Shown here piece by piece: positions 9,260 to 64,000 of a stretch of 64,000 nucleotides of DNA. Numbering within the stretch: position 1 is the stretch's first letter; each line of letters begins with the position of its first letter. Source of the stretch: Squalus acanthias (taxonomy: Eukaryota); assembly GCA_030390025.1 (NCBI GenBank), contig CM059431.1:113772001-113836000 (forward strand), read 5' to 3'. The notes beneath the pieces were generated by a model, which searched no databases, was not told where the DNA came from, and saw only the letters and a program-made list of their open reading frames with translations. The position numbers were made by a program, and so were the translations under genes.

Positions 9260-9583
9260 ACACAATCCAACCTGGCTTTTTCTTCAGTAGAAAATTCCAA
9301 CACCTCAGTTGAGTTTCCAGAGGAACACATTACATCCCTCCCTTTACATTAGACTAATAAAATATCTTTTGTTAATTTTGCGGTCAGCTGCGAACGAACG
9401 GCATTGCCGTTCACCTCGCTGACAGCTGCCCACAGAGTTTTCGCAGGCTTTAGAGCGGAGACTTGCTCTAATTCGGGGTCTTTTACAGTGCCCTCTACAG
9501 GGGATCTGTGGCGTCTGTGATCAGGACAAGTAACAGCGAGGCTCTTCAACCAATCAGATTGAAGAATCCTCACTGAGACACGC

Positions 9584-10457
9584 GGGGCTGAATTTTTAAT
9601 GGGGAAGGTGGGTTGAGGGCGGGGGGCCTCTGAGGCAGTCGGGAAACCCAGGAGAACGAGTTTCCCGCAGGCCCTGCCAAATGCATGGGAAGCCTCTGTT
9701 TCCCACCCGCAGCCAGCCAGATTGAGAGACTGGCTGGCTCCGGGTGGGTAGGCCTACGGCACTAGACTGCTCAGAGGAGGGAGGGAGGGAGGGATTGTGT
9801 GGAGGCTGGGGGGGTGACTAGAGGAGTTGGGGGAGTGTATAAGCGATCGCGGGCCAGGACCAGCATGGTGGGGTGGCTGGCAAAGGATCGGGGGTGGGTG
9901 TGGGTGTGAAGAGGATCGGGAGCCGGGAGGAGAATGGAGAGGATGATCGCTGAAGGATGGGGGGCTGGGTGCAGCACAGGGAGGCTGCGAAGAGGATCGG
10001 GTGTGGCGGGGGTGGTTGCGAAGAGGATCAGGGTCCGGGAGCAGCACGTGGGGAAGTGGCCTTGTGGGGGTTCGTAGGCCTGGCGGGCGGAGTGGGAGGC
10101 CTCATGGGGGGTCGCAGATCGTGGGGGTGGGTTAGGTAGAGACCCTGGATCCAGGAGGTAAGTGTAAAGGCACTTAGCTCCTGGATCCAGCAGTCCCCAC
10201 CTTGCATCAGCTGGCGGGTTTCATGAGGCCTGCAAAACCCAACCAACTAAAGTTACATACAAATTGGAGATTAAAGCATATAAACAAGTATTTAAATAAA
10301 CGATCCACCTCCTGGCAGTAGGGATTGGCTGACAACTCCCCTGTCCCACCAGAAGTGGGTGGGTTGGGGTGGTTTCAGGTTGGGATTCAGATTTTTAACA
10401 CTTTAACCACCCACACGCCCCCAACCACCTGTTTTTTAGCTTAAAATTCCCCCCCCC
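9584..10457. mobile_element. Harbinger-type MITE, nested
   Basis: Ends ggggctgaattttt / aaaattcccc; G-rich internal repeats; related to 46484-47060 and 56429-58300. Confidence 0.7.
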
Positions 10458-10535
10458 CACTCCACCGAGTCTAAACCAGAAAGTATAAAGCAGTAAATAT
10501 AAATTAGATTTAAATGATGTACAGAAAGCAAAATA

Positions 10536-12253
10536 GGGTCCGCGATTTCCCCTATCTCGGTGGGTCCAGTGCAGCCGGAGTCGATGGCAGGTCACGAACT
10601 TGCTGCTGGCTCCAGCCCGCTGTCCAAAGTGATTTTACATTGATTGGGCTTGTTAAGCCCGCCCAGCGCGTTTGCCGGCCAATTGAAGGAAGCGGCTCTG
10701 ATGATGTCAATTGATGACACGTCATCAGCCGGTTTCCTTAAAGGGATCATGCGCAAATTGATTTTGACATTTGTGCTGTCAGTGTTCTACAGCACTGAAG
10801 TGCTGCTAACACTGAGGAGCACTGCACAGAGGTGCACGGCTGCACCCAGGCTCTCACATGACTCCCTCTATATGCTTATGGAGGGAGTCACAGCATGTAG
10901 GGAGGTTCTCATTCCTTCCAATGGGTGGAAGAGACCTCCCCAGGACACCAACGCAGTCTGGTTGCACATTGCACAGGAGGACACAAGCAGGGATGTCGTC
11001 AGGAGGACAAAATGCAATGGTGCAAACCTTCCAATAATCTCAGTAGATCACAAAATGTTACTGCAAAGCCACACTCAACCTTACCCTGCTGTGCCACTCA
11101 TCACATCCCCAACACTCTGCCTTCCCTACCCTATTCCTGCACATCCTTACTCACACCAACTTACCTTGTACCTCCACCCAGCCCTTTCTATCTGCATTAT
11201 CACTTCCCTATCTCAATAGCCAACTCTCACACTCACCCTCATCCTAGTCTAATCATACCTACTAACAACACACAAGGGTAGGCACTTGGGTGTTTTAGCC
11301 AATGTTCATGTGAAGTTTCTGTTAATGTGCTGTCAAACATTGAAATCTTTATTTTCAACACTTTGTATTCTTAGACAGATATGTGTGCCCCTTTGGAAGT
11401 GGCTTAGTGAGTTGCAGTGACTGGTGAGACATAACGGTATCCCCTGCAATGGTCATGAGTGTAAAAGAAATGGCTTGGGCATTGTAAGGATTCTTTATGG
11501 TGTTGGTGTGAGGTGGTGCCAATCTGGCACATCATGTGACAGCCAGGGTGTACAGTATCAAGTGAAGTAAATCTGGCTAGGGTGAGGCCATCCCTGGTCT
11601 CCCGGGCAGCAATGTGCTCAGGTGCTGATGCCGTGTCCTGTGCATCATCAGTTGATTGCGGAGAAGGTTGGTGTTGTTGGTGCTGCTGATGTGCCTGGTG
11701 CTGCTGGTGTTGGGGCTGATTGTGGTGGGATTCTGATGGAATAGATGGCAGATGAACTTGAGATGACAGAAGTGGTCTGTCAATGGTGAGAGAGGTTGTT
11801 CCAATAAGGTGACACTGGATAGAGAGTTTACTCCAAACACTTGCAACCTGCATAAAGCTCAATCTGTCTTCCAAATGCAATAAGCAATAGCTTCTGAGTG
11901 TGGAAAGTGAACAGCTATGAGATGGGAGCTTTTTAGCACATTTACAGCTATCAAGTAAAGAGATGATTTCATGGTAACACAACTCCTGACCTCCTTACCT
12001 GACATGATCCCCGAGCAGCGTGGACTCCGTGGGCGACCTCATAAAATTTAAAGGCGAGCTCAAAATACTTTTTAAGTGGCTCTTAACAAGGTCATAATGA
12101 CCTAAATTGCCTCCCCTGTTGCTGCGTGTCGGGTCTGTTCAGCATTGACAGACCCAACATCTGGGAAAGTCGCGTGGCAGCGGGTCAACAAAAAAAAATT
12201 CCCAACCGACCCGCCACCAAACGCGCTCGCCGACTCCCCGAAAAATTCCCCCC
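10536..12253 (+). mobile_element. 1.7-kb Harbinger internal-deletion derivative, copy A
   Basis: Myb exon-1 remnant on + (APRLSHDSL..LMEGV...W..IAQE), fused transposase N/C termini on -; colinear with 50501-52271. Confidence 0.85.
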
Positions 12254-15083
12254 AAAGATTGGGAAATACAAATGGGATTAAGGGAGAGTGACAAAAGAGA
12301 CAGACAGAAAAAGGGAATAAAAAATAATGTTACTTTTTAAAAAAAACTTCAACACTAATTTTCTCCTGAGGGAATGAGACTCCACACTTGTAAGATTAAA
12401 TTTTCAGGGCCAGAGAGGTTGTTCAGCAGTAATCATCACCTGTCATGCCATTAAAAACTCACTTACTCCTGAATGCACCAGCCCTAACTTTTTCTGCTAT
12501 CTTTAGTGGGGAACTAGTGAGCAAGTGCAGCAAGTTCGCGCCGTTGCATTCATTTCCATGCCGAGTCTATCGGCGAGGACTAAAACAGTGCACCCTGTGA
12601 AGGAGCGGGGTATCTCTGACAGAAACTTCCGGATTTACGCGTTTAACTGTGTATCCGTGGACGCGAGAAGTTGCTGTCAGTTTTATCCTGTTATAACGGT
12701 GAGCGCTGTTGTCCTCACCGTTATTATGTACACAAAAAATCCGGCCCATTATGAAAACTCTTGAACAAAATAATCCTTTAGGCATGACGGTGACAGGGTG
12801 GCAGTGAATTTTTGTTTCATAAAGGGAGATTGCAAATAGGCGGACACTGGCTGCTGATGGCTGCATTATTTGGTTCAGAACCACGAAAATCAATTTTGTG
12901 CTCATTCTGCATGATATGCTGGATTCTGTCAATGCTATTGCTTTCTTGAAGAAAGATACATTTCTGATCTCTTAATGGCAAAATTCTTTGAACACTTATA
13001 GTAGAATCAAGCCTAATATTCACAGTGTAGACATGTATTATGTATGGATGTATTAGTTTTCCTCGTTCATTGTATTTCACTAGGAAATGGTCATCAACTT
13101 TATTTCACTAGGTTGGGTGTGACATGCATATACCCCTTCATTTTTGCCGTTGCATCTAAATCTATCTTCTGTTTATTGTTCCGTCTGGAAGTGATAATGT
13201 GAGGCAGTATGATTCCCAAGTTGCAGGTGCTTCATACAGGAATGCTCAAAGTTGTTGCTGCCAAGATTAACCGTCCAATTGAGCAGTTTGGACACACTTC
13301 CTGATAGTTCCCACCCAGGAATCATTAAGCCTTCTGGTTTGGGGTGCACCATCCATTTTAATACAGCGGTAATTCCTGGGTTAATCATTGCAGTTTCTGT
13401 CATAGTTTTCTGTGCTGTTGGATTGCTTCAGTTTTTAAATTAATTTCTTTGGTGCCTAATCACTGTGTTATTACTCAACAGATATATTTTTGCAAATAAT
13501 CTAAAAGATCTTCGCTTTGTAAATTCAAAAATGTATTTATGCTACAAAAAGGGTCCAGGTGTGGAAAACAAGGTCCCTTTGGCTGCTGTTTTCTTCTCGC
13601 TGGTAGGTGGCACTGCAGCTATAGCAAGATCTTGCCGAATCCTTATACAAATGCTCTAAGAAGTTTTTAAATCCTTGTTAACACAGCAAATAAATGGGTA
13701 ATGTAGTGTAAATATACCCTTTACTTGAATGAAAAGATGCAAGTATGCATTAATAAGTGTATTGTAAAATATCCTTTCATATAACACATGGGGCCCATTT
13801 TTTCTCTCTCTCTCTCTCGTGATGGTGGAAAGCCTGTTACTGGAACAAATTCAGCTAAAATCTCGCACTGTGTTGCACTGAGGTGGTACTTTGACAACTG
13901 AAGTGCGATTTAATCACCACAGACGTGTTCTCACAATTCATAGCAAAGACCCAACAATGTGCCACCAAAGTGATGTTTTTACTTCTCACCCTTTTGAAAG
14001 AAAGAAGATCTGATCTTGAGGGATAAGTGTCTTACTATTATACTATGTTAATTTAAATATAATTACTTCGGGTTGAGAATCAGTAGGTTAAACCCTTTGC
14101 ACAGCTGCACAATGTTCCTCTGCAGTATTGATGTAAAAGCAAATATGTATTTACAAAATGCTCTGGTGAAAAGTAATATCAAATAATTTTCTCCAGGTAC
14201 AAAGTAACAAATTCAGTAGTGACTTTATGGCAGAGAAGAATGTGCATCTAATGTGTTAGCCACTTCATGTTTTTCAAATTCTGATCTTTCATTTTCTCTG
14301 CTGTACTTCATCATTTTATTTCATTCCATTTTGTTTCATTTGATTCACTATTACTCTACTTAACTTTCAACTTCAATGAGCAGAAATCTGTTTAAGGACT
14401 GTTTCCATTAAAATACAGAGCTTGGAGCAATGTCTTAAACAGCAGGACTTAGGACTTTTAGGGAAGGGAAATAGCAATTTGAATGGCAGGATTATTTATT
14501 CGTATTAATTTGAATGTTTGAAAACATTGACTGTAGTTTCCCCTACCACTACCTGCATCTTCCGACAGGTCCAGAGCATTAATTATCCTTCCGTAACTCC
14601 TAATACACCACATTAATCCTTCTAATAGGTCCTAGTGCCACTAAATACTCTTATCTCTACAAACCCCAAGGCTATCTTCCACCAGCTTTTCTTGCACTAT
14701 CCTCAACCACTTAAGCTGTTCCTCATCCTCTGTTCTCCCTTGCAGCCTATTAACATAATTTTCGGCTTCTTTATTGCTTCTGGCCTCTTGACCTGAACTT
14801 ACAGCACCTCTTGGTCCTCCTGATATTCTTCACTGTTCTCTTGGCTAGCTGTGCTCTTTAACACTCTTTAACAGCCCACTCAAGCTCCAGCCTCTAGTTT
14901 GATCCATTTTAGCAAGACAAAAGGTTACCCCCCAACCTATGTGATGGTAGTTCAGTGACAATGGCATTTTTTACATGCTGGTGTCATCCTCTGTGAAGAC
15001 AGCAGAATGATAGAACTGTGCCAAGGTACTTTTAAAATGAATTTGTACATTTATTTGTCTGCGTAGAAATCCTTATCAAGCCT

Positions 15084-31779: not shown

Positions 31780-31912
31780 CTAACTAATTCCCTATCCAAG
31801 CCAATAGCTTGCCTCCAATTCCACGGGCTCTCATTTTTGTTAACAGTCTCTTATGTAGAACCTTGTCAAATGTCTTCTGGATGTCCATACAAATAACACC
31901 CATAGACACTCC
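31780..31912 (-). mobile_element. CR1 RT fragment, downstream half (split by Harbinger)
   Basis: GVSMGVICMDIQKTFDKVLHKRLL..M...GIGG.LL.WI.N. Confidence 0.85.
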
Positions 31913-32442
31913 GGGCTCGATTTTGCCAGGCCCGAGGGGGCGGGATTGGAGGTGTGTGAGGTGGTAAAATCGCAAAAAGAGGTGGGCGGGCCCGATCCCG
32001 CCTCCATCCCGCCTCCGAGCAATTTTCCCACATGCGTGTTTTCTGACCCCGTTTCCATCCCGCCTCCAAGAGGCGGGATAGGCCCTTAAGGTCCTTAACA
32101 ACCACTTAATTGCCTCTATAATCCCATTGTGAGAGGCCTTTCTGATTTTAACACTTTTCCCACGTGCTGCACGTCTCCTCTGGAACACGCCAGTGATACC
32201 TGGCGGCATCACAAGTGGATTGCTTACTAACATCTGCAGCTCCACCATTAAAAAGGAGTTTTCAGCAATCATCATTTGCAGGTGGCAGAACCTTGTTATC
32301 TCAGGTCTGAGGGATCTTTTAGCAGGCCTACTCATTGTGCTGGAAGTTTGGAGCCTGACACCCATCTCCAGTGTGACCTCCTGGGAAACCCCTCTCCCCA
32401 CCTTGAATGAGCGCTTCCTCAACTGAGGTATATACCAGAAGA

Positions 32443-33681
32443 ATGGGAATCATTTATTTCCTTTCCTCCTGGACATCAGATTCGGACGAAGACCAGCCAT
32501 GGCAGCAGCAGAACCCTGAACAACAGCAGCACCAACTGCAGGAGCAACAGCAGGAGCGCCAAGCTGCTGCTCACCCACCTGAAGCTGCACAGGCCAGAAG
32601 GCGCCAACGCATGGAAGCACATCGGCGCAGGAGATACCCCTAAAACAGGGTCTACAGACAGAGGATAAGCTACCTCAACATGACTGAGCAGCAGTGCCAA
32701 AGGAGGCTCAGACTTTCGCGAGAGGTAGTGGGTGACATCTGCGCAATGCTGCAGCAGGAGCTGGAGCCCAGAGGAGTGGGTGGGCACCCCTTACCAGTGG
32801 CCGTCAAAGTCACCACCGCACTCAACTTTTTTGCTTCAGGCTCATTCCAGGGATCAGCAGCAGACATCAGCGGCATCTCCCAGGCGGCCGCACACACTTG
32901 CATCACGCAGGTAACTGATGCCCTCTTTGCCATCGCTCATAATTACATCAATTTCTCCAAGGATCAAGCAAGTGGAACTGCGCGTGCGGTTGCGTTTGAC
33001 AATCTGGCAGGCTTTCCGAGGGTGCAGGGCGTTGTTGACTGCACACATGTGGCCCTTAAGGCACCCCAGCACAATCAAGGTATTTTTGTCAACTGCAAGG
33101 GCTTCCACTCCCTCAACGTACAGCTGGTGTGTGACCACAAGAAGGAAATTTTGCATGTTTGCACCAAGTACCCTGGCAGTTGCCATGACTCCTTCATCCT
33201 GTGGCAGTCTAGTGTGCCTCCGCTCTTCAGTCCGCCAGACCAACTTTTCGGATCGCTACTTGGAGACAAGGGCTATCCCCTGAAGACGTGGCTAATGACG
33301 CCGTTGAGGAGCCCATCCAATGAAGCTGAGGAGCGCTACAACTCCAGCCACATTTCCACCAGATCCATAATCGAACAAACCATCGGCTTGCTGAAGATGC
33401 GCTTTAGATGCCTGGATAGATCAGGTGGAGCCCTGCAGTACTCAGCAGCCAGGGTCTCCAGAATCGTCGTGGTCTGCTGTGCACTTCACAACATGGCACA
33501 GCATCGTGGCTTGCAGATGCCTGAGGAACAAGTGGCTCATCACATAGCCTCCTCAGATGATGAGGAGGAGGAGAGCGACAACAAACAGCTTGCGGAGGCG
33601 CATCAACCAGCGGCAGCAGCATGCAAGCACATTGCTGCCCGGAATGCAAGGCACGCACTCATCTTGGCTAGATTTGCTTAG
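32443..33681 (+). pseudogene. Harbinger (HARBI1-like) DDE transposase with one in-frame stop at 32641-32643; 333-aa downstream ORF 32680-33681 is open
   Basis: [69 protein letters not shown]-rich N-terminus in the same frame. Confidence 0.93.
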
Positions 33682-34020
33682 CCTAGACAATCAAGCACTT
33701 TTGCCTCGCAGCTTCTTACCAGACCATCGACAATGGCCAAGAACCTACGGATTCCTATCACTATGACCACCATACTGACAATTGCAAGTCACACTAAGCT
33801 CTCAATGTGGAAGTCCCATTTGCGAAATGACACACGCCACAACTTCAACTGTTTGACATCAGCATTTTTTATCACAACAAGCAACTGATGGCATTTCAAA
33901 AATAAACACAACATGACACCCAAGTGACTACCCTTGTGATACTTGTGCATTATCTTCCACTTACGCGTGTTCCTACGTGGTGCTTCCCCTGTGGCTTCAG
34001 CAGATGTGGAGGCCCCTTGC

Positions 34021-35889
34021 TCACTTTCTTCCTGCTCCTGCCTCGACACCTTTGGGGTTGCGAGCCTGTGAGGGCTCGGCAACAGTCTGCTGCTCCTGTG
34101 GCTGTGCAGGGGTTGAGACGCTGATCTCAATTGGGTGGGGACTCTGGTGGGGCTCTGACCGAGGGCTTTGCAGTGGCTTGGTCGTGTGAGCGCTTGGAGA
34201 GGAGCCCCCGCTTCCTTGTCGTCTGCCACCAACCTCCCTCTCATGGGTCAGCCCCACTTCAGAGCTAGCAAGTGGCTTGACAGCACCTTGCTGCACTTCA
34301 GGGGGGCCATGAGGACCCGTTTCTGCGCTGGAAGTCCTACTCCAGAGGACTTCCATGAAGGTCTGGTTTCTCTGCTCAATAGCTGACCATCGCTCCTCAA
34401 GAGATGTCAGTCTATTCTGAACAATGACCATGTTTTCACGACCCTGGCAACAAGCTCCTCCATGGCCATAGCTATCCTCTCCTCTACGGTAGCCATCCTT
34501 TCCACGGAGGTTGCCATCCTTTCCGTGGTGATGCGTTCATGCGCCAACGCCTCCACAAAGGCTCTGCTCATGTTAGCGATGGACTCCTCCATTCACTCCA
34601 CACTCGCAGCGACCCTGGAGACAAAACCTGCAAGAGACCCCTGCACCTGTTCCTGGAGTTCCAGCACCGCTCTTCTTGTGGATGGACCCGGAGGTACAGG
34701 GTCGACATGCAGCCGAGCCGAGCTGGCAGAGTCCTGCGCCCTCCGACGAGGACTCTCCACTGCTGTCCCTGTCTCCACCATCTGCTGATGCTCACTTGTG
34801 AGCTGTGATACACCAAGTGACAACACTACACTATCTCGCGCAGTTCCCTCCGAGGTGTGAGTGTCTGCGCTGGTGCTGGGTGCGCTGAATTCTGCTGACG
34901 CTACGCCTTCAAAGGTTGCAGCTTCCTCTGAGGAGTCCTGAAGCTCAGGCTCTTCCTCTTGGACAGTGGGGATGGGGGCTGTCGATGGTCCTGTGGGGGA
35001 GTAAAGGAAAGAGTTGGAGATGTGAGGTAAAGTTTGCATGCACATTGAATTGTACAGATGATCATAAGTCAATCTGTTAGACCTTCAGAATCATTATCAG
35101 TTACTCATACAATGTCAATGAGAGAGATGCAAAACTATTCTGTCACCAGCTTGCTGTGATGCACCCGTCTGTCTGTCCCCCACTTGCACATCCTCCTCCA
35201 CTCCCACAATCTCCAGGGCCGCCTCCTCTGCAATGGTGAGCTGGGCTACTGAGGGTGGCCCTCCTCCTGTCCTCGCCCTCTCCCTCTTATTGTGGGCTCT
35301 CTTTTCCTGCAATGAAGGACACAAGTGGAGTTTGAGTGAAAATGAAGGAGTGAGTGTAGAGATTCCATAGCATAGCTGCTTAGAAGGAGACAAAGATGGA
35401 GTGAGGTGCCAAGACCAAGGGCCCTCCCTGTGTGTTGTAAGTTGTTGTCATAGCATCACAGTGATAGGGAGTGTGAGGGCTGCATAGTCGAATAGTTAAG
35501 TGAATGTGAACATACAGAGAGAGGGAATGGGTAAGGGTGCAGGGATGTCAGTGTCAAGTGGGATGTGGAGGAAGAGGTTGGCAAAGCAGAGTGCTGGTGA
35601 GGAGAGGCGATGGGGATCAGATTGAGGATGATGGGAAAGTCATACTCACTTTTCCTGTGCAGAGAAGGTCATGAAACCTCTTCCTGCACTGCAGCCAGAT
35701 TCTGCGGCACATAGACATTGAGTTGACTTCCTGGGCCACTTGCATCCACACAGCTTTAGTCTGCTGTGGAGGCTTTTTCCTCCCGGAGGAAGGGAAGAGC
35801 ACCTCCTTATTTGATCTTGCTCCCTCCACCAGAGCTTGGAGGGCGGCCTCATCGAACCTTGGCACACACTTTGGCCTACTGCTGGACAT
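34021..35889 (-). pseudogene. Harbinger Myb/SANT-like protein; exons 35889-35650, 35306-35147, 34990-~34021
   Basis: PRFDEAALQALV..W..VA.EVN...R.W.QCRKRFHDL; HNKRERARTGGG; acidic then coiled-coil exon 3 with TGA at 34595-34593 and a frameshift near 34435; canonical GT-AG, phases 0 and 1. Confidence 0.88.
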
Positions 35890-35959
35890 AGTTGCTGAAT
35901 GAAGCGATCACAACAATGGCCATTAAAGTTTGCAGTCTCCAGAAGAAGCAAGGCTGCTT

Positions 35960-35995
35960 GCAGGCCTTAAATCCAGCAGCACTGATGACGTCATC
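35960..35995 (-). promoter_or_regulatory. Putative Myb-gene promoter: CRE palindrome gaTGACGTCAtc plus TTTAA box
   Basis: TGACGTCA at 35986-35993, about 100 bp upstream of the ATG; recurs at 50666-50673. Confidence 0.4.
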
Positions 35996-36171
35996 GGAGG
36001 CAACTTTCAGGATGGCAAGACTCATTGGGCCAGGGGTTCGCACACGCTGGAAATCAAGTGCCCAATTAGGGGAAAATCGCACTTTTTTCCCACTTCACAT
36101 CGGAGTCGGGTTCCTGACACGAAAACCACCTGACACGCCCCCCAGCCTGCCCCAATGGCAAAATCCAGCCC

Positions 36172-36272
36172 TCCCTTATCTACCCCGTTTGATATCTCCT
36201 CAAAAAATTCAACTAGGTTCTTTAGACATGACTTACCCTTTACAAATCCATGCTGGATCTCTCTGATCAGCT
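36172..36272 (-). mobile_element. CR1 RT fragment, upstream half
   Basis: QHGFVKGKSCLKNLVEFFEEIS..VDKG continues in frame into 31909 once the Harbinger and one TSD are removed. Confidence 0.85.
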
Positions 36273-36465: not shown

Positions 36466-36489
36466 TGGCACTGGCTGATGGACACACCG

Positions 36490-36705
36490 TTTGGCGAGCT
36501 GCCTGTCAGTGCTTGATGGCCGTCAGCGCTCGCCCCCCTGTCAGTGCTCGCTGCCCGTCGGTTCTTGCCACCTGTCAGCGCTCACCGCTTGTCCGTGCTC
36601 GCCGCCTGTCAGTGATTGCCACCTGTCTCTGATTGCTGTCTGTGCTCGACGCCTATCTGTACTCGATGCCTGTCTGTGCTCGCCATCTGTCAGCGCTCGC
36701 TGAAT
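36490..36705. repeat. Degenerate short tandem repeat (ctgtcagygctcgc-like)
   Basis: Repeated ctgtc/gctcg units. Confidence 0.6.
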
Positions 36706-36881
36706 TGAGGCCCAACAAGGAAAATGGTTCGGCCCTCTCGCTACTTCTTTTGGACAAGCAGTGCGATTGACTCGCCCACTCGGTGCGCGCTATGAATGAA
36801 AATCAACCCCATTATGTCCAGCCAGATGTCCGAGGAAAAGGCAAATCCATTCAATTCAAATACAAGCATCTTGTATCTCTC

Positions 36882-37751: not shown

Positions 37752-38589
37752 GGGTGAGATCTTGCCAGCCCTGGGGAGGTGGGTTTGGAGGCGGAACTGC
37801 TGGGAAAATGGCAGAATCTGGGTGCGGATGCCCATCCCGCCCCCAACCTGCCTCCGTGCCATCTTCCCAGGAGGTGGGTAACCGACCCGCGCCGGGTCCC
37901 ATCTCCTGGAGGCGGGAAGGGGATTACAGCCACTTAACTGCCTGTTAACAGATAGTTAACAGGCAGATAAGAGGATTATCCCCATTTTACCCACACAAGT
38001 GCAGGCTTCCCAGAGGCTGCGAACCCCGCCAGGGTCACCGAGGCGAGCAGTGGGTCTGCGGGGGTCGGAGGGGTGCAAAAGTGCGCTGTGAAGGTAAGTG
38101 ATGGGTGCAAGTGTGAAGAGGTGAGCATGTGAGGTAAGTGGAAAGTGTTAGAAAAAGTTTACTTACCTTTGTTTCTTCCTGCAGGCTTCAATCATTGGGT
38201 ATGCGGAGAGTCTCGCATCTCACCGGCAGAGATGACAGATGGCTGTTGCATTCTCCAATGCAACAACCATCTAATTTCTGCTAAAGAAAGAGTTTTGATG
38301 AGTCTTGAATTCAAGAACTCATCAAACTATAGAGAATGTCAGTGTCTGACTGCTTCACAGAGCTGTCAAACGATGACAATTCATCTGTCAAAAAAAGATG
38401 AAACGTCATACGTTGACGTTCTCTGTAACCGGCTTCCCCTTAATTGGCATGCTAAGCCCGCTGGGCAGGCTTAACAAGGTCAATCAAGGGAAAATAGCGT
38501 GGGTTGGCCAGAAGTCGATGGAGGCGGGACTAAAACCCGTCAAGTGGGATTCCCGCCTCCAAAAGCTCCCCATTGGCAAAATCCAGCCC
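37752..38589. mobile_element. Non-autonomous Harbinger element
   Basis: ATT TSD; right terminus tggcaaaatccagccc identical to that of 31913-36171. Confidence 0.85.
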
Positions 38590-49255: not shown

Positions 49256-50500
49256 AATTATTTGCATTTTTTCAATAAATTAAATCCAGGTTCAAGTAAA
49301 ACCCCCTGCTGCAATGCCATCTAGGGGTACATACATGGCAGTCCAACAAAATGTCCTTTCTGAGGTTTGATTCTAATTTCTTACTGTAAGTGATGGAATA
49401 CTTTCACAGGTACCTGGTTTGAATCTTGAAGTAGTCATTTGTGTGGGCCTGCTGTTTCTCTATGCCTTCGGAAAGCTACAGTTGAAAGCAGCAGTCTAAC
49501 TCATCAAAAAAAGCATGGGGATGACACCCATCAAGTTGAGCAGCTGAGGCAGGGATTCAGATGCATAAACATGTTTGAATACTTGAAGCAATTGGTAGGA
49601 AGGATTCTCTTTAGATTAGCTTTCTTACTATAACACAAGCTTACATGAACTGAGACCAAAGGTACACTGTTTATTTTAAGATAAGTTAACACTATTCATC
49701 AGAATTTTTAAACTTAGTAATATCTAAATGTCAAATGAAATGTCAACGTGTGTAGGGAGGAGCATTTATAATGTCTTTACTTACCCGGTTATGTAGTCTG
49801 CAGTGTTCGTGTAGTAACATGACACTACTTGTAGAGAATTATTATCTTCTAAAAGTTTTGCCCATAGCTGGTCACCATCTCACAGCAGCAGATGCACAGC
49901 GAACGTGCTCCATGGCCACAGGCAAGGGATTCTCATGGAGCCTATACCCTAGCCACCACTGAGTGCAACATCTGTTGTCTTATTTACAGAGCAATTGTGA
50001 GCCATCATTTTTTTAATAAAAGCAGTCCCTGCCAAGTTTTACTGTCAAACAGAAAAATTCAGCAGGGATTGCTTTAAAAAAAAAAATGAAAATTATGCCA
50101 GTTTTCAATGGGCCTGTAAACAGATCAGCCATAAAGCACTCAAGTGCGGCACATGGACTTGCTGGGGAGAATGGCCCTGCCTGTCTTCAGCCAAGGCTGT
50201 GGGCATCAAATCTGTTTCCATGAAGCGTTGGTCTTTCATGGAGGAGCATTTCAGAACAAGATTTATTCCTCATTAGCAATTCAGAAAGATTATCCACAAG
50301 CAATTGAGAGCTAGATTAGTGCCCGATATTTTAAAACTTTAGGCCCGACAAGTTGGGCTGCAATGGGCCTGTATATTCTTATGTATTAGTGTATTTCATA
50401 ACTATCTTTACATATATTTTCTAGTTAAATTAATGCACAAACAACCGGCATTCTCATTTAAAACTAATGTTCTAATGAAAATTCATCGACCTGAAACATT

Positions 50501-52271
50501 GGGCTGGATTTTACCAACCTCGGCGGGTTCGTGGCGGGTGACGTCGGTGGCAGGTCCCGCCCTCGCTGCTGGCTCCAGCCCGCTGTCCAAAATGATTGTC
50601 TGATGATTGGGCTTGTTAAGCCCCGCCCAGCGCGTTTCCCGGTCAATTGAAGGAAGTGGGTCTGATGACGTCAATTGATGACGTGTCATCAGCCAGTTTC
50701 CTTAAAGGGACCATGCGCAAATTGATTTTGACATTTGTGCTGTCAGTGTTCTACAGCATTGAGGTGCTGCAAATACTGACAAGCACTGCACAGATGTGCA
50801 CGGCTGCACCCAGGCTCTCCCATGATTCCCTCCATATGTTTATGGAGGGAGTCGCAGCACGCAGGGAGGTCCTCTTCCTTTCCAATGGGCGGAAGAGAAC
50901 CTCCCCAGGAGATCAAAGCAGCCTGGTTGCACATTGCACAGGAGGGCACAAGCAGGGATGTCATCAGGAGGACCAGGCTGCAGTGGTGTAAACCTTTCAA
51001 TGATCTCAGTAGATCGCGAAATGTTAGTACAAAGCCACACTCACCTTCACCCTGCTGTGCCTCTCATCACATCCCTATCACTCTGCCTTCCCTACCCTAC
51101 TCCTGCACATCCTTACTCACACCAACTTACCTTGTACCTCCACCCATCCCTCTCTATCTACATTATCACTTCCCCCTCTCACTAGCCACCCCTCACACTC
51201 ACCCTCATCCTTGTCCAACCATTCAAACTAACAACACACAAGGTTAGGCAATATTCATGTAAAGGTTCTGTTCATGTGGTGTCAAACATTGAAATCTTTA
51301 TTTTGAACACTTTGCGTTCTTGGACAGATTTGTGTGCACCTTTGGAAGTGGCTTAGTGAGTTGCACTGAATGGTGAGACATAACGGTACACCCCGCAACG
51401 GTGATGAGTGTGAAAGGAATGGCTTGGGCATTGTAGCGATGCTTTATGGTGTTGGTGTGGGGTGGTGCCAACTTGGGACATTATGTGGCAGCCAGGGTGT
51501 ACAGCATCAAGTGAATTAAATCTGGCCATGGTGAGGCCATCCCTGGTCTCCCGGGCAGCAATGTGGTTGGGTACTGATGTCCTGTGTCCTGTGCAGATTC
51601 AGTTGATTGCGGAGAAGGTTGGTGTTGTTGTTGGTGCTGCTGGTGTGCCTGGTGCTGCTGGTGTTGGGGCTGATCGTGGTGGGATTCTGAGGACCAAGTT
51701 GAGATAGTTTCAAGGGCACCGATGCTGATGGAATAGATGGCAGGTGAGGTTGAGATGACAGAAGCAATCTGTCAATGGTGAGAGAGGTTGTTTCAATGAG
51801 GTGACACTGGATAGAGAGTTTGCTCCAAACACTTGCAACCTGCATAAAGCTCAATCTGTCTTCCAAATACAGTAAGCAACAGCTTCTGAGCTTGGAAAGT
51901 GAACAGCTCTGAGATGGGAGCTTTTATAGCACATTTGCAGCTGTCAAGTAATGAGATGATTTCATGGTCATACAACTCCCGCCCTGCTTACCTTATGTGA
52001 TCCCCGAGCAGCGTGGACCCTGTGGGCGACCTGGTAAACACTGAAGGTGAGCTGAAAATAGTTCTTAATGCTCTGCTAACAAGGTCATAATGACCTTAAT
52101 TGCTGCCCTCGCCGCTGCATGTCGGGTCTGCTTAACGCTGACCGGTCCGACATTTGGGAAGGTGCGTGGTGGCGGGTTGACAGTGGGGTTCTGCCCCAGT
52201 GTCAAAAAAATGCACTTTGCCACCCGACCCACCACTGATCGTGCCTGCTGACCCCCCGGAAAATTCCCCCC
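50501..52271 (+). mobile_element. 1.7-kb Harbinger internal-deletion derivative, copy B, inserted in a Penelope-type terminal repeat
   Basis: Colinear with 10536-12253; flanks 50468-50500 and 52272-52343 rejoin as ...gacctgaaac[a/g]ttaactctgtttctc; TSD att/gtt. Confidence 0.88.
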
Positions 52272-52838
52272 GTTAACTCTGTTTCTCTCACCACAGATGC
52301 TGCCTAACCTGCTGAGGATTTCTAGCATTTTCAGTTTTTATTTCTTCATGTTACCTTTTTGATCATTGTGGCAAGAAGTAAAACTTAAAAGTGTGATTAT
52401 TGTATTGTCCTACGATCAGCTTCCCCAATGTCTCAATTGATAACTATACTGTCCAGTTTCGAAATGTGGCATAAAAACTACAAAAGACCCAGGTTCACGC
52501 CCTATTCTGTAATGAACTAGCTGATCTCAGCTAGGACAACCCCTGGGTTAGAGAGGAAAAGAATCACCCTGGACTCCCTCTCCAAATCTCCATCTCTATG
52601 GTGCGACGCCATCCAATTTCGAGCCAACTATCTATACTCACACATGAAGAACCGTCACTTGGAACAGGTATTGGTGGTGGCTTCTGCCCTTGGTCTCTAC
52701 ACCAGCAAGAACTCAACACCCTCAGGAGAGTGACTCTTGCTGGATAATATGGAAATGCCAAAGTTGAGTAATGCATTTGCAAATATTGGGTAAAGGCAGA
52801 ATTGAACTTGGCTGTAATACCCTTCAAAAACCATCACT

Positions 52839-56185: not shown

Positions 56186-56428
56186 AAGGGAGCAGCACTT
56201 TATTGTGGCAGGGAACATTTTTGCAGCACCTACAGCAGCAAGGAGATCAAACATTAGAAGCCTTTAAGCTTCAAAACACATAAACGACTGCAGTAAAAAT
56301 TATTTGTCAAACCTGCTTTCAGCTTTCAAACAAAAGCAAAATACTGTGGTAGCTTGAAATCTGAACTAAAAAAGAGAATGCTGGAAATGTTCAGCTGATC
56401 AGGCAGCATCTGTGGAAAGAGAAACAGA

Positions 56429-58300
56429 GGCCCCAATATTTACGGGGAGGCGGAGAGGGTGCAAGAGAGCGCTGGGAAAACCCAGCAAGGCAGGGGACAT
56501 GGAGGTCCTGCTGAATTTAACGGCAGGACCTCATTATAAGTTTTTGTTTCCATTTCCTGCCCGGCAGCCGGCCAAATTGACAGGCTGGCTGGCTGCCGGG
56601 CAGGGAAACCAATGGCAGGAGGCAATCTGAAAGAAGGGAGGGAGGGGTACGGTAGCATAGTGGTTATGTCACTGGACTAGGAATCCAGCGGCCTGGTACT
56701 AATGATCTAGAGATGTGAGTTCAAATCCCACCCCAACAGCTGGGGAATTTAAATTGAGTTAATTAAATAAATCTGGAATAAAAAGCTAGTAACAGTGACC
56801 ATGAAACTACCGGATTGTCGTAAAAACCCATCTGGTTCACTAATGTGCTTTAGGGAAGGAAATCTACTATCCTCACCTGGTCTAGCCTATTTGTGACTCC
56901 AGACATACAGCAATGTGGCTGACTCTTAACTGCCCTCTGAAATGACCTAGCAAGTCACTCCTTTGTATCGAACTGCTACGAAAAACAATAATAAGAATAA
57001 AACCAGACGGACCACCCGGCATCGACCTCGGCACCAGATTCAGACACGACAAAGGCCCAGTCGGCCCTGCAAAGTCCTCCTCATTTAAAATCTTGTGCCA
57101 AAATTGGGAGAGCTGTCCCACAGACTAGTCGAGCAACAGCCTGACATAAGTCAGACTCGCAGAATCATACCTTTCAGCCAAAGTCCTAGACTACTCCATC
57201 ACTATCCCACTGGCAGGACAGACCCACCAGAGATGGCAGCACAGTGGTATACAGTCAGGAGGGAGTGGCCCTGGGAATCCTCAACATTGGTTCTGGTCAA
57301 ACATGGTCAAGGAAACCTACTGCTGATTACCACTTACCGCCCTCCCTCAGCTGATGAACCAGTACTCCTCCATGATTAACACCACTTGGAAGAAGCACTG
57401 AGGGTAGCAAGGACAGAGAATGTACTCTGGGTGGGGGACTTCAATCACCATCACCGAGTGGCTCGGTGGCACCAATGCTGGCCGAGTCCTGAAGGACATG
57501 CTGCCTGAACTGGGCCTGCAGCAGGTGGTGAGAGAACCAACATGAGGGGAAAAACCTATTTGACCTCATTCTCACCACCACCACCTCTAAGTTCGCCTGC
57601 AAGTTACACACCATCCTGACTTGGAAATATATCACCGTTCCTTCATTGTCGCTGTGTCAAAATCCTGGAACTCCCCCCCTAACAGCACTGTGGGAGTACC
57701 TTCACTGCACGGACTGCAGCGGTTCAAGAAGGTGTCTCAAGGGCAATTAGGGATGGGCAATAAATGCTGGCCTTGCCAGCGATGCCCACATCTTGTGAAT
57801 GAATAAAAAAAAAACAGGGCTTTCTAGTGGGTGGGGAGAATAGAATGGCAATCGGAAGGAAGGGAGCGAGAGATTGGGGCATGGTCGGAGGGAGGTTGGC
57901 GATTGCGGTCAGGGGGAGAAAGTGCCATGATCAGGAGAGGGGAGGCCAAAGACTTCTTTAAGGGGCTGGGGGGGGAGCAGTCCTGCTCGTCCTGGCCTAC
58001 AGGGAGTGCTGCAAAAGGCACTTACCTTGTGGAGTCGGCTGCTCCTGCCTCCCCTTCACTGCTGGGTTTCTCAACCCTGGGAAACCCGGCCGACAACTGC
58101 TAAATTTAAATCAGTCTCCCAATTGCACTTTGGGAGCCTGATTTAAATATGTTAATGAAGTGTCCCGCCTCACTCGCACGCTGTAAAAATGGCGACAGGC
58201 GTGCACGTGTTGGGGACGTAATCCCTGTTTTAACATTTTTAACCCACCCACAACCCTCTCCTGCCATTCTTGGGGGTGGGGCAGGTTTAATATCGAGGCC
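56429..58300. mobile_element. Harbinger-type MITE hosting the tRNA-headed retroelement, itself inserted in a Penelope-type repeat
   Basis: TIRs ggccccaatattta / ttaatatcgaggcc. Confidence 0.7.
56649..57814 (+). mobile_element. tRNA/SINE-headed, internally deleted LINE with AP-endonuclease remnant
   Basis: A box tagcatagtgg, B box gagttcaaatcc; LVPKLGELSHRL..QQPDI, YRPPS, WVGDFN, V.EPT.G.N..DLILT; LINE C-terminus (WNS.P), 3'UTR, poly(A). Confidence 0.8.
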
Positions 58301-58425
58301 AGCGTTAACTTTCCAGGTTAATGAGGGTTCTAATGAAAAGTCATCAACCTGATAGGTTAACTCTGTTTCTCTCTCACAGATGCTGCCTGACCTGTTGAGT
58401 GTTCCCAGCATTTTCTGTTTTGATT
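58301..58425 (+). mobile_element. Penelope-type terminal repeat with decayed hammerhead; inverted partner at 56335-56428
   Basis: ctaatgaaaagtcatcaacctgata-ggttaactctgtttctctctcacagatgctgcc. Confidence 0.7.
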
Positions 58426-60198: not shown

Positions 60199-60920
60199 GG
60201 GCCAGAATTTACTGTAACCGGTGAACGAACAGCAACTGTCGTTAGTTAGACTTGCCCGTTTAATTTCCAGGAACCTTTTCACGGCAAGTTGCTGTAAGTG
60301 GGAGAGCAAAATGGCGCAGCGCCCTCTACAGGGCACCTGGGATCTGAGTGAACAAGACAAACAAATGTGTATCTCCTTAACCAATCAGATTGAAGAATTG
60401 TTAACGAGCACCCGCAGAATCTGAACCAGGAAGTTTAAGTTAGAATATTGAATTCAATGTCAAATCAGGTGCAGAAAGTAAAATAAAGAGAAAAAAAGAA
60501 AGATGGGATTAAGAGAGAGATAAAAGAGAGGAAGAAAAAGTTAAAAAAGAAATTTACATTTAAAAAGAAATCTCCAACAACAATTAAAACCTGAAGGAAT
60601 GAGACTTTACTAGTTAATTTTCAGTGCCAGTGAGGTTGTTTGGCAGTAATTAAGCCCTAACTTTTTGTGGTGAGTTTAGTTCGTATCTACAGTGCAAGTA
60701 CAGGAACTACACGCCATTCAATGCATTTCAATGGGGAACCAGATGGTGAGATTCTATTTTCGAGAAACTAATGGTGGAATGGCGTGTCTCAGACAGCAGC
60801 TTCCAGATTTTCACGTTTAACTGCACATTTGCCCTCGCTTTGAAGTTGCTGTGTGACTTGCGCATAGATAATGATGAACGCCGTTCGCCTCACCATTATT
60901 TTGAAAGTAAATTCTGGCCC
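60199..60920 (+). mobile_element. Harbinger-type MITE, intact ends
   Basis: Perfect 15-bp TIR gggccagaatttact; AAT TSD. Confidence 0.88.
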
Positions 60921-62364: not shown

Positions 62365-62955
62365 TGTGGGAGCACTTCTCCGACATTAACTTTACTCAGG
62401 AGCAATGTATGAGGCATCTTCACTTCACCCAAGAGCCTTTCACTGAGCTATGTCACCCGCTGCAGCCACAACTCCAGCCTTGCACCAGTTCATCGACAGC
62501 ACTGCCTGTGGCTGTCAAAGTCACCGTGGCCCTTAACTTTTATGCCACAGGCTCCTTTCAGGCTGCAGCAGTTGTTATCAGCTACATATCATAGTTTGCA
62601 GTCCAGCACTGTATCAGGAATGTCACTGAGGCTCTCAACAGCTATATTACTTTCCCTATGGATAGAGTGAAGCATGACAAGAGAGCAGGCTTCCCCAGGG
62701 TGCAAGGTGCCATAGACTGCACCCACATTTCCTTGCCATCACCAGCCTGGCATCTTTATCAATCACAAGGGATTCCATTACCTCAAGCTACAACTGGTTT
62801 GCAAACACAGGCAGCACATCATGTGGGTCTGTGCCCATTTTCCTGGCAGTATTCATGACTCATTCATCATGTGCCAGTCCTCTGTGCCACCTTGATTCCA
62901 GCCAGGCTGTCACATTACAGGCTAGCTACTGGGAGACAAGGGCTATCCCATCCAG
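62365..62955 (+). pseudogene. Harbinger transposase remnant
   Basis: [47 protein letters not shown] with stops and frameshifts. Confidence 0.88.
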
Positions 62956-62959
62956 ACAT

Positions 62960-63692
62960 GGGCATTCTGACTCAGCTGGCTGTGTGGCACAAACAAGGGC
63001 ACTGTCGGAGTCTCTGGCGAGGGAGCAAGCATGCTGTCATCCTGACAGAGGACAGGACATGCCTCACCCATGGCGCCAAGGCCACTCACCTGGGGCTGTG
63101 CCTCAGCACTCCTGTGGCTCTGTGTGAGAACAGAGTGCAGGAGTAATGCAACGTTCTGGAAGCCCCTGTTAAAAGTGGCCCCCAGAGCCAAGATGGCAGC
63201 TGTGAGAGCTGTCAGGAGAGGTTCCATGAAGGTGGGCGCTACTGTCATATTGATAGAGCTGACCGGTCCATATTAGGCAGAATGGCCTCCATGCTTTGCA
63301 CACAGCTTTGACACAAGTTGGAGCTGGACTCGGCTATGCTCTGTGACATTGCGCACAAGCTCCCTGGCAGGCTGCCCAGTGCACCTGGGATATGTCCGTC
63401 AGCCTTCTTCAGTTGAATGGAACTTCGAAGTCAGCATTTTTGTCCTCTGCAACAGAGCTAATATGTGATCTCGCCCTACGGCGAGTTGGCATCTGTGGTG
63501 TCCAATCCCTCTGCCCTAGCTCCTGCACACTTGTGCCTGGTGAAGAACCATCCTCTAGCCTAGCCTCTAAAATCCGCATGATACCAGTATCTGAGCTGGT
63601 GCTTGCAAGGGTAAAATCGAGTAACGCTGACTCATTAGGAAGGCTGGCCTCCTCTTCCTGAAGTGGCAGATGTGTCTCCGCATCTTCAGCAC
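62960..63692 (-). pseudogene. Harbinger Myb-gene exon 3 remnant
   Basis: ASTSSDTG.MR.LEARLE.GS matches GTTSDTGTTRSLEASLVEGS at 654-336; acceptor tttcatttcag at 63693. Confidence 0.7.
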
Positions 63693-64000
63693 CTGAAATG
63701 AAAGAGAGGGACAAGGGTTAGCTTTCAGTGTGAAGGGAGAGCAGAGAGAGAAGTGAAAGCATCTGTAGTTTGTCATGCAGTGTGTGTAGATTGTGATAGA
63801 AGTAATAAGGGAAAAGGAGGATAATGTGTGAAGAAACCCTGCCTGATGTCTCCAACAGCATTGCCAGTTGCCACGATATTGACTGTACCCCTGCCGAGAT
63901 GCCCAATACACTTTATTCGAGGGGAAGAGAGTTGTGGCCGACCTTCTTCTACAAGAAAGAATGATGCGGAGATGCCGGCGTTGGACTGGGGTGGACAAAA

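Follow-up and report, generated by a model that had tools for sequence, protein, structure and literature searches.

We describe a complete-length, two-component transposable element of the Harbinger type in a 64-kb stretch of the Squalus acanthias genome (contig CM059431.1 of assembly GCA_030390025.1; hereafter the window, whose coordinates are used throughout). The element spans 4,259 bp (31913-36171), is flanked by a target-site duplication (TSD) of TCC, and is inserted in a fragment of a long interspersed nuclear element (LINE). Taken jointly with the whole explanation developed below, we consider it very probable that this is a full-length, decayed copy of a high-copy Harbinger family of sharks, within the PHIS superfamily. 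Its features, and those of the host site, are as follows.

31787-31912, minus strand: host LINE reverse-transcriptase fragment, downstream part (RVT_1, E 0.0054, under the Pfam cut-off)
31910-31912: left TSD copy, TCC
31913-31928, plus strand: left terminal inverted repeat, 16 bp, GGG at its start, pairing with the right arm at 15/16
31937-32078: subterminal motif TCCCGCCYC, five copies lying in either orientation, to which the Myb protein is predicted to bind
32443-33681, plus strand: Harbinger transposase gene, 412 codons, its start inferred from the Met-Gly N-termini of several homologues
32641-32643, plus strand: premature TAA upstream of the catalytic domain
33037-33375, plus strand: intact DD35E catalytic triad, D199 (33037), D275 (33265) and E311 (33373)
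33940-34990, minus strand: Myb gene exon 3, with an acidic region, a heptad repeat, and an AT-hook-like and basic tail
34991-35146, minus strand: predicted intron 2, 156 nt, GT..AG, phase 1, weak donor
35147-35306, minus strand: Myb gene exon 2, 160 nt
35307-35649, minus strand: predicted intron 1, 343 nt, GT..AG, phase 0, joins fitting XP_067827223.1
35650-35889, minus strand: Myb/SANT exon 1, 80 codons, DNA-binding domain
36156-36171, minus strand: right terminal inverted repeat, 16 bp
36172-36174: right TSD copy, TCC
36172-36267, minus strand: upstream portion of the host LINE reverse-transcriptase fragment, its frame matching that of the opposite side (alone, no Pfam match)

Ends, genes and damage

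An original prediction from this DNA had proposed two inverted repeats within TCC flanks, and both are present, with 15 of 16 bases paired between the arms and an exact TCC on either side. In shuffles of an 8-kb region an arm pair of equal quality arose on its own in 36 of 200, which makes it weak by itself, and together with an exact 3-bp flank in 2 of 200. Both ends are breakpoints of the LINE reverse-transcriptase frame, the left end coincides with a step in contig depth, and shifting the ends outward was ruled out, the next bases being unpaired. The interrupted LINE, which we take from its motif to be a CR1, had been held to prove the empty site by reading through the junction (VDKG/VSMGV). 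That argument fails: the empty site reads open with one TCC or with two, and since a 3-bp duplication preserves the frame, CR1 read-through cannot prove the TSD. A single Gly at this point presumably fits CR1 spacing; in the window and among the fetched proteins there was no other CR1 copy of this stretch by which one Gly could be told from two. In one sequencing run a contig joins 31835 to 36224 with a middle of unknown sequence.

The two genes are convergent, as had been stated, with the transposase on the plus strand (DDE_Tnp_4, E 1.6e-37; Plant_tran, 2.2e-11) and the Myb/SANT gene on the minus strand (Myb_DNA-bind_5, E 7.9e-11), and the catalytic D/D/E residues are indeed intact. The transposase departs from the consensus of 60 homologues at 4 of 98 conserved columns, a count that is not unusual alone, the homologues themselves, many of them also decayed, departing at 2-29 such columns. 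Two replacements lie between D199 and E311: Cys218 stands in place of Arg, giving the NCKG already pointed out, against NRKG in at least 29 of the 60 homologues, and Ser271 replaces a Trp that 55 of 60 homologues keep, four residues before the second catalytic Asp. Contigs of the family encode Trp271, Ala241 and Arg254, and among ten near-fixed family differences examined in the transposase, five alter the residue.

The Myb gene is predicted to be spliced into three exons, and the Heptranchias protein XP_067827223.1 is colinear with the whole model. Along exon 3 the match to this protein passes from frame 2 to frame 1 and back to frame 2 (local scores of 194, 143 and 81; other frames at most 45), an order that requires two frameshifts where one had been counted. 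Near 34451 one nucleotide is missing, contigs of all four runs showing the extra base (66-85% of depth); near 34055 the loss is of 14 nt, at the place of the homologue's PRGRPPK motif, and 52 contigs of one run have a loose end there with 14 extra bases. The gene has probably lost one base of its stop codon near 33940: all four runs show an extra base behind 33939 that would restore the codon, though at no more than 18-71% of depth. An exhaustive search with exon 1 found 38 relatives, and all ten that were looked up are shark or ray proteins; two word-based searches, with exon 1 and exon 3, found none. Among the runs listed as containing the element none is recorded as RNA, and no intron-skipping joint occurs among the 15 joints listed (455 more exist); we count neither as evidence on expression. 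Exon 3 also contains a 21-nt (7-residue) repeat at 34460-34545, where 25 contigs of one run have a loose end with an extra unit, as carried by other copies; the repeat suggests a variable coiled-coil.

The damage had been described as limited: one stop in the transposase, one stop and one frameshift in the Myb gene, and likely CpG changes. The stops are as described, and the TGA of exon 3 (34593-34595) fits CGA>TGA, CGA being the presumed ancestral codon, but the transposase stop (32641-32643) is TAA, no CpG product, and the CpG observed/expected ratio (0.42 in the element vs 0.39 in the window) is uninformative. The tally was nevertheless too low, having overlooked the second frameshift, the probable loss of the stop codon, the change of Trp to Ser271 and an asymmetry of the subterminal repeats. 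The window contains 11 copies of this motif, TCCCGCCYC, where 0.37 would be expected; five of them lie at the left end of the element and four at the ends of an 838-bp element (37752-38589), and beside the right arm of the 4,259-bp element there is none, even with one mismatch allowed. We predict that TCCCGCCYC is the binding site of the Myb protein. The present copy is likely dead and likely unable to supply either transposase or Myb protein. The original prediction that it is reconstructable stands in altered form: given this damage, reconstruction must draw on the many copies of the family, which is routine, and not on this copy.

Family size and kinship

Of 3,199 candidates in a search with the transposase, 437 proteins reached E<=1e-20; the best matches, with 54-64% identity, are from sharks and bear the name 'putative nuclease HARBI1'. 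A quick tree was built from 60 rows (59 of the 120 listed proteins plus that of the window), no protein labelled Nuwa or Harbinger3_DR being among those fetched. In it the window transposase falls in a clade of 41 rows with a support of 100 in the Shimodaira-Hasegawa-like approximate likelihood ratio test (SH-aLRT); the named rows are all from sharks and rays, two rows being nameless, which points to an elasmobranch host. It sits on a long end branch (0.32) and has no close cross-species partner.

More than half of the element's sampled words are contained in 12 of the 24 listed runs, from four organisms. Contigs were aligned to the element at 85% likeness, and the three runs of DNA type were used for depth; summed contig depth, to be read as a qualitative sign and not as a copy number, came to 1.3-10.6 thousand for the bin on the left flank, as against 93 thousand to 3.4 million for bins wholly within the element. 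The raised depth extends over the full length of the element, and since it lies so far above the left flank, the element is one copy of a large family that includes full-length members.

In contigs of all four runs a joint connects ~32604-32606 to 33628-33629, skipping about 1,020 bases; a common derivative thus lacks the core of the transposase and keeps the Myb gene. Two more distant elements of the window (50501-52271 and ~10540-12253) have a junction close to the corresponding point. When metagenomes were scanned for the arm, one locus came up, a 23-nt match without further likeness that was rejected as chance, and in viral contigs 51 pattern matches included no relative of the transposase.

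Target site and rival explanations

The duplication of TCC had been called atypical and, beside ATT, AAT, TTA and GTT at other elements nearby, had been read as a sign of relaxed target choice. We hand-picked seven end-bounded elements, that at 31913-36171 among them, from a relaxed scan (30 left-like and 54 right-like ends), excluding ends without a clear partner (9585, 10454, 12253, 12747, 36810 and 46484). Their flanks are TTA/TTA, TCC/TCC, ATT/ATT, ATC/AAT, ATT/GTT, AGA/AGC and AAT/AAT. Among the TSDs quoted, ATT and AAT are exact, TTA/TTA requires a right arm one base short, and the supposed GTT reads ATT/GTT; AGA/AGC is inexact and ATC/AAT mismatched. Two of the seven elements sit in a short interspersed nuclear element (SINE) whose other copies show the original triplet. 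The quoted TSDs belong to different families. Around the triplet, the pattern A-N-N-Y[NNN]R-N-N-T is matched at 22 of 28 positions over the seven sites, against 10.9 by chance, and at 20 of 24 without the TCC element (simulated P about 5e-6). With the flank positions non-random and the centre varied, the centre appears loose and the flanks constrained, so that relaxed choice holds for the central three bases and not beyond them.

For the zebrafish element Harbinger3_DR both proteins are required, the Myb protein attaching to the ends and carrying the transposase into the nucleus (PMC2836001, PMC9392472). By analogy, we hypothesize that in the active family a spliced Myb/SANT protein bound the element ends, by prediction through the TCCCGCCYC repeats, and would have delivered the DD35E transposase both to the nucleus and to the inverted repeats. 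The transposase would then have excised the element and inserted it through a 3-nt staggered cut, as Harbinger3_DR suggests. Recognition of the target probably relied on a palindrome in the flanks (A-N-N-Y to the left, R-N-N-T to the right), the three duplicated bases being hardly constrained; TCC would have been duplicated, we propose, because the site offers one good half-site. The left six bases of the TCC site match the Harbinger3_DR half-site AAACAC at five of six, as do 1,300 of 63,970 window sites (~2%); the right flank matches at two of six. A broader proposal we put forward tentatively, doubt slightly outweighing belief: shark Harbingers may form a transposase radiation of their own, picking sites by the flanking palindrome alone and duplicating almost any central triplet, such that the TSD-based split (TWA, CWG, TNA, ANT) fails, and a rebuilt consensus may prove to be a two-component vertebrate transposon able to integrate even at half-sites.

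Several points weigh against the main explanation. Of the four positions of the flank pattern the TCC site agrees at two, both in its left half. A single TSD comes from the element's own family; the other six sites are from other families and were hand-picked by their ends, and for the element at 56429-58300 no coding remnant gives a link to Harbinger. None of the 24 loose ends listed (7,074 more exist) gave the flanks of other family copies. No contig placed spans the whole element or the exact empty site, the right edge of the raised depth is blurred by neighbouring repeats, summed depth being no copy number in any case, and the binding of TCCCGCCYC is only predicted.

The transposase might instead be truly relaxed, inserting at nearly any sequence; TCC, ATT, AAT and TTA, and by inference GTT and AGA, all occur as triplets within one 64-kb window, and neither pattern position in the right flank of the TCC site is matched. 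Set against this are the non-random flanks of the seven sites and the extended target preference that all characterised Harbingers show (PMC2836001), and we regard the possibility as unlikely. Unlikely too, by a slightly greater measure, is that the family is still active and that intact copies mobilise this one in trans. Both arms and the TSD are intact, and the element is covered by contigs of one run that may be of RNA, but this label is a guess and gives no sign of transcription, the right subterminal motifs are absent, and this copy is ~7-16% divergent from the long aligned contig pieces. Since three organisms share these differences, amplification likely predates their split.

That TCC/GGA is a family-specific TSD and founds a new group, defined by its TSD like PIF/Harbinger, NuwaI, NuwaII and Pangu, draws on its exactness on both sides and its position outside TWA, CWG, TNA and ANT. 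The 838-bp element at 37752-38589 speaks against it: with a near-identical right arm, the same subterminal motif and the same GACAC left flank, it is bounded by ATT/ATT, so closely related ends use another triplet. We accordingly rejected TCC as a family signature, and hold a group of this kind to be very improbable. A domesticated HARBI1/NAIF1-like gene pair, suggested by the names of the best matches ('putative nuclease HARBI1', 'NAIF1-like') and by candidate domesticated relatives within the same transposase clade, can be dismissed on the inverted repeats, the TSD, the insertion in a LINE, the nonsense and frameshift lesions across both genes, the high family depth, and the end branch of 0.32 with no close cross-species partner.

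Neighbouring elements and known Harbingers

Other Harbinger-like remains are frequent in the window. A second decayed Harbinger of the same convergent layout lies at 62370-63700, where a transposase (62370-62961, plus strand) abuts Myb pieces (~63700-62961, minus strand); a spliced Myb/SANT remnant (320-1430, pieces 1414-320) heads on the minus strand toward the window start; and two Myb-bearing derivatives of 1.7-1.8 kb are 84% identical to each other. Two different end-bounded elements (50470-52310 and 56380-58340) are inserted in copies of one SINE at points that differ by three bases and adjoin a GTTAAC palindrome, with a third SINE copy nested near 58354. In a nested pile at 9370-12747, a copy of the miniature inverted-repeat transposable element (MITE) family of 60199-60920 seems to be interrupted by an element of 870 bp (9585-10454) and by a Myb-bearing one of 1.7 kb. 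At 36485-36810 a 17-nt tandem array precedes a Harbinger-like right end at 36810 with ATT next to it, for which no left end was found.

Related proteins form groups of their own. Six transposase-like proteins, one each from Heptranchias, Carcharodon, Chiloscyllium, Scyliorhinus, Narcine and Mobula (P0017, P0025, P0027, P0029, P0032 and P0034), have short branches and 66-84% identity, rays and galeomorph sharks standing apart, and five of the six lack one or both catalytic aspartates. This group is a candidate domesticated Harbinger transposase gene of elasmobranchs; in the accessible part of PMC9392472 only HARBI1 is named as transposase-derived. Five more cross-species groups at 76-90% identity (P0022/P0026/P0051, P0037/P0039, P0003/P0004, P0018/P0023 and P0007/P0009), one of them spanning a ray and two shark orders, are candidates for domestication or horizontal transfer. 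A Myb-like protein conserved in Hypanus, Mobula, Hemitrygon, Heptranchias, Rhincodon and Stegostoma (clusters P0124, P0126 and P0136) looks like a domesticated Harbinger Myb gene.

The decayed element at 31913-36171 belongs to the superfamily in its broad sense, having an IS5-related DDE transposase, a Myb/SANT gene, short arms and a 3-bp duplication, and lies outside all groups that Han et al. 2015 define by their TSD (TWA, CWG, C/TNA/G and ANT; PMC4482050). TCC is atypical to the extent that it fits none of these, and less so in that duplications other than TAA were already known (PMC4482050). PIF/Harbinger in the strict sense is similar in its two genes, its short arms starting with G and its size of about 4.1 kb (PMC4482050), but duplicates TWA, where our one copy of this family has TCC and one of the seven window sites fits (TTA, at an uncertain boundary). 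NuwaI shares animal hosts, arms of 12-61 bp starting with GGG, a length of about 4.5 kb, and a DDE and a Myb/SANT gene (PMC4482050); its CWG duplications are absent from the TCC copy and its six neighbours (0 of 7 sites). It is NuwaI that the TCC element most resembles in arm start and size, a likeness by description. For NuwaII the site reads C/TCC/C in place of C/TNA/G; Pangu has ANT and a second gene without a known motif, against TCC/GGA and a Myb/SANT gene here. Domesticated HARBI1/NAIF1 genes are intact, single-copy and without inverted repeats, none of which describes this element.

Among characterised systems, Harbinger3_DR and Harbinger3N_DR of zebrafish are alike in combining a DDE transposase and a protein of the Myb-like kind with a 3-bp duplication in an extended palindromic target, given for vertebrate Harbingers as 15 bp, AAACACCWGGTCTTT (PMC3016246). 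Harbinger3_DR, the vertebrate Harbinger revived in 2008, was rebuilt from the consensus of decayed copies (Sinzelle et al. 2008, as cited in PMC3016246, PMC2836001 and PMC9392472); it differs, in a comparison by description, in its central triplet, CWG there and TCC here, varied in the neighbours. Harbinger-Snek of sea kraits likewise comprises full-length members, members with a solo open reading frame and short non-coding derivatives, but was reported as horizontally transferred, whereas the kin here form a broad elasmobranch clade, the comparison again being by description (PMC8437027). The nearest sequences remain the elasmobranch proteins named 'putative nuclease HARBI1' and 'myb-related / NAIF1-like', the Myb protein being colinear end to end; these are host genes by automatic naming, come without ends or target sites, and with a transposase identity of at most 64% represent different families.

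Earlier accounts of cartilaginous fishes are brief on this point. Harbingers are listed in the whale shark (PMC8455134) and are the commonest DNA transposons of the grey reef shark (PMC12498223), in neither case with a description of families in the accessible text; a 2022 survey found none in the elephant shark and urged a check of other cartilaginous fishes (PMC9179366); PMC13343379 does not mention Harbinger. The accessible text of PMC4482050 lists no shark family, and a search of its supplement showed cartilaginous fish only in the genome list. In titles and abstract openings of the papers that our searches listed we found no elasmobranch Harbinger family described with its target site, though supplements of shark genome papers may list such families.

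The importance of the present copy is modest, and the copy itself is a fossil of a kind found several times within the window. It gives the full anatomy for one shark family: ends, exon structure, a likely binding motif and a transposase-less derivative. If its target is read from the flanks only, and if this is true genome-wide, the TSD would be a poor classifier in this clade; and the family would be a candidate second vertebrate Harbinger tool, with a target looser than that of Harbinger3_DR.

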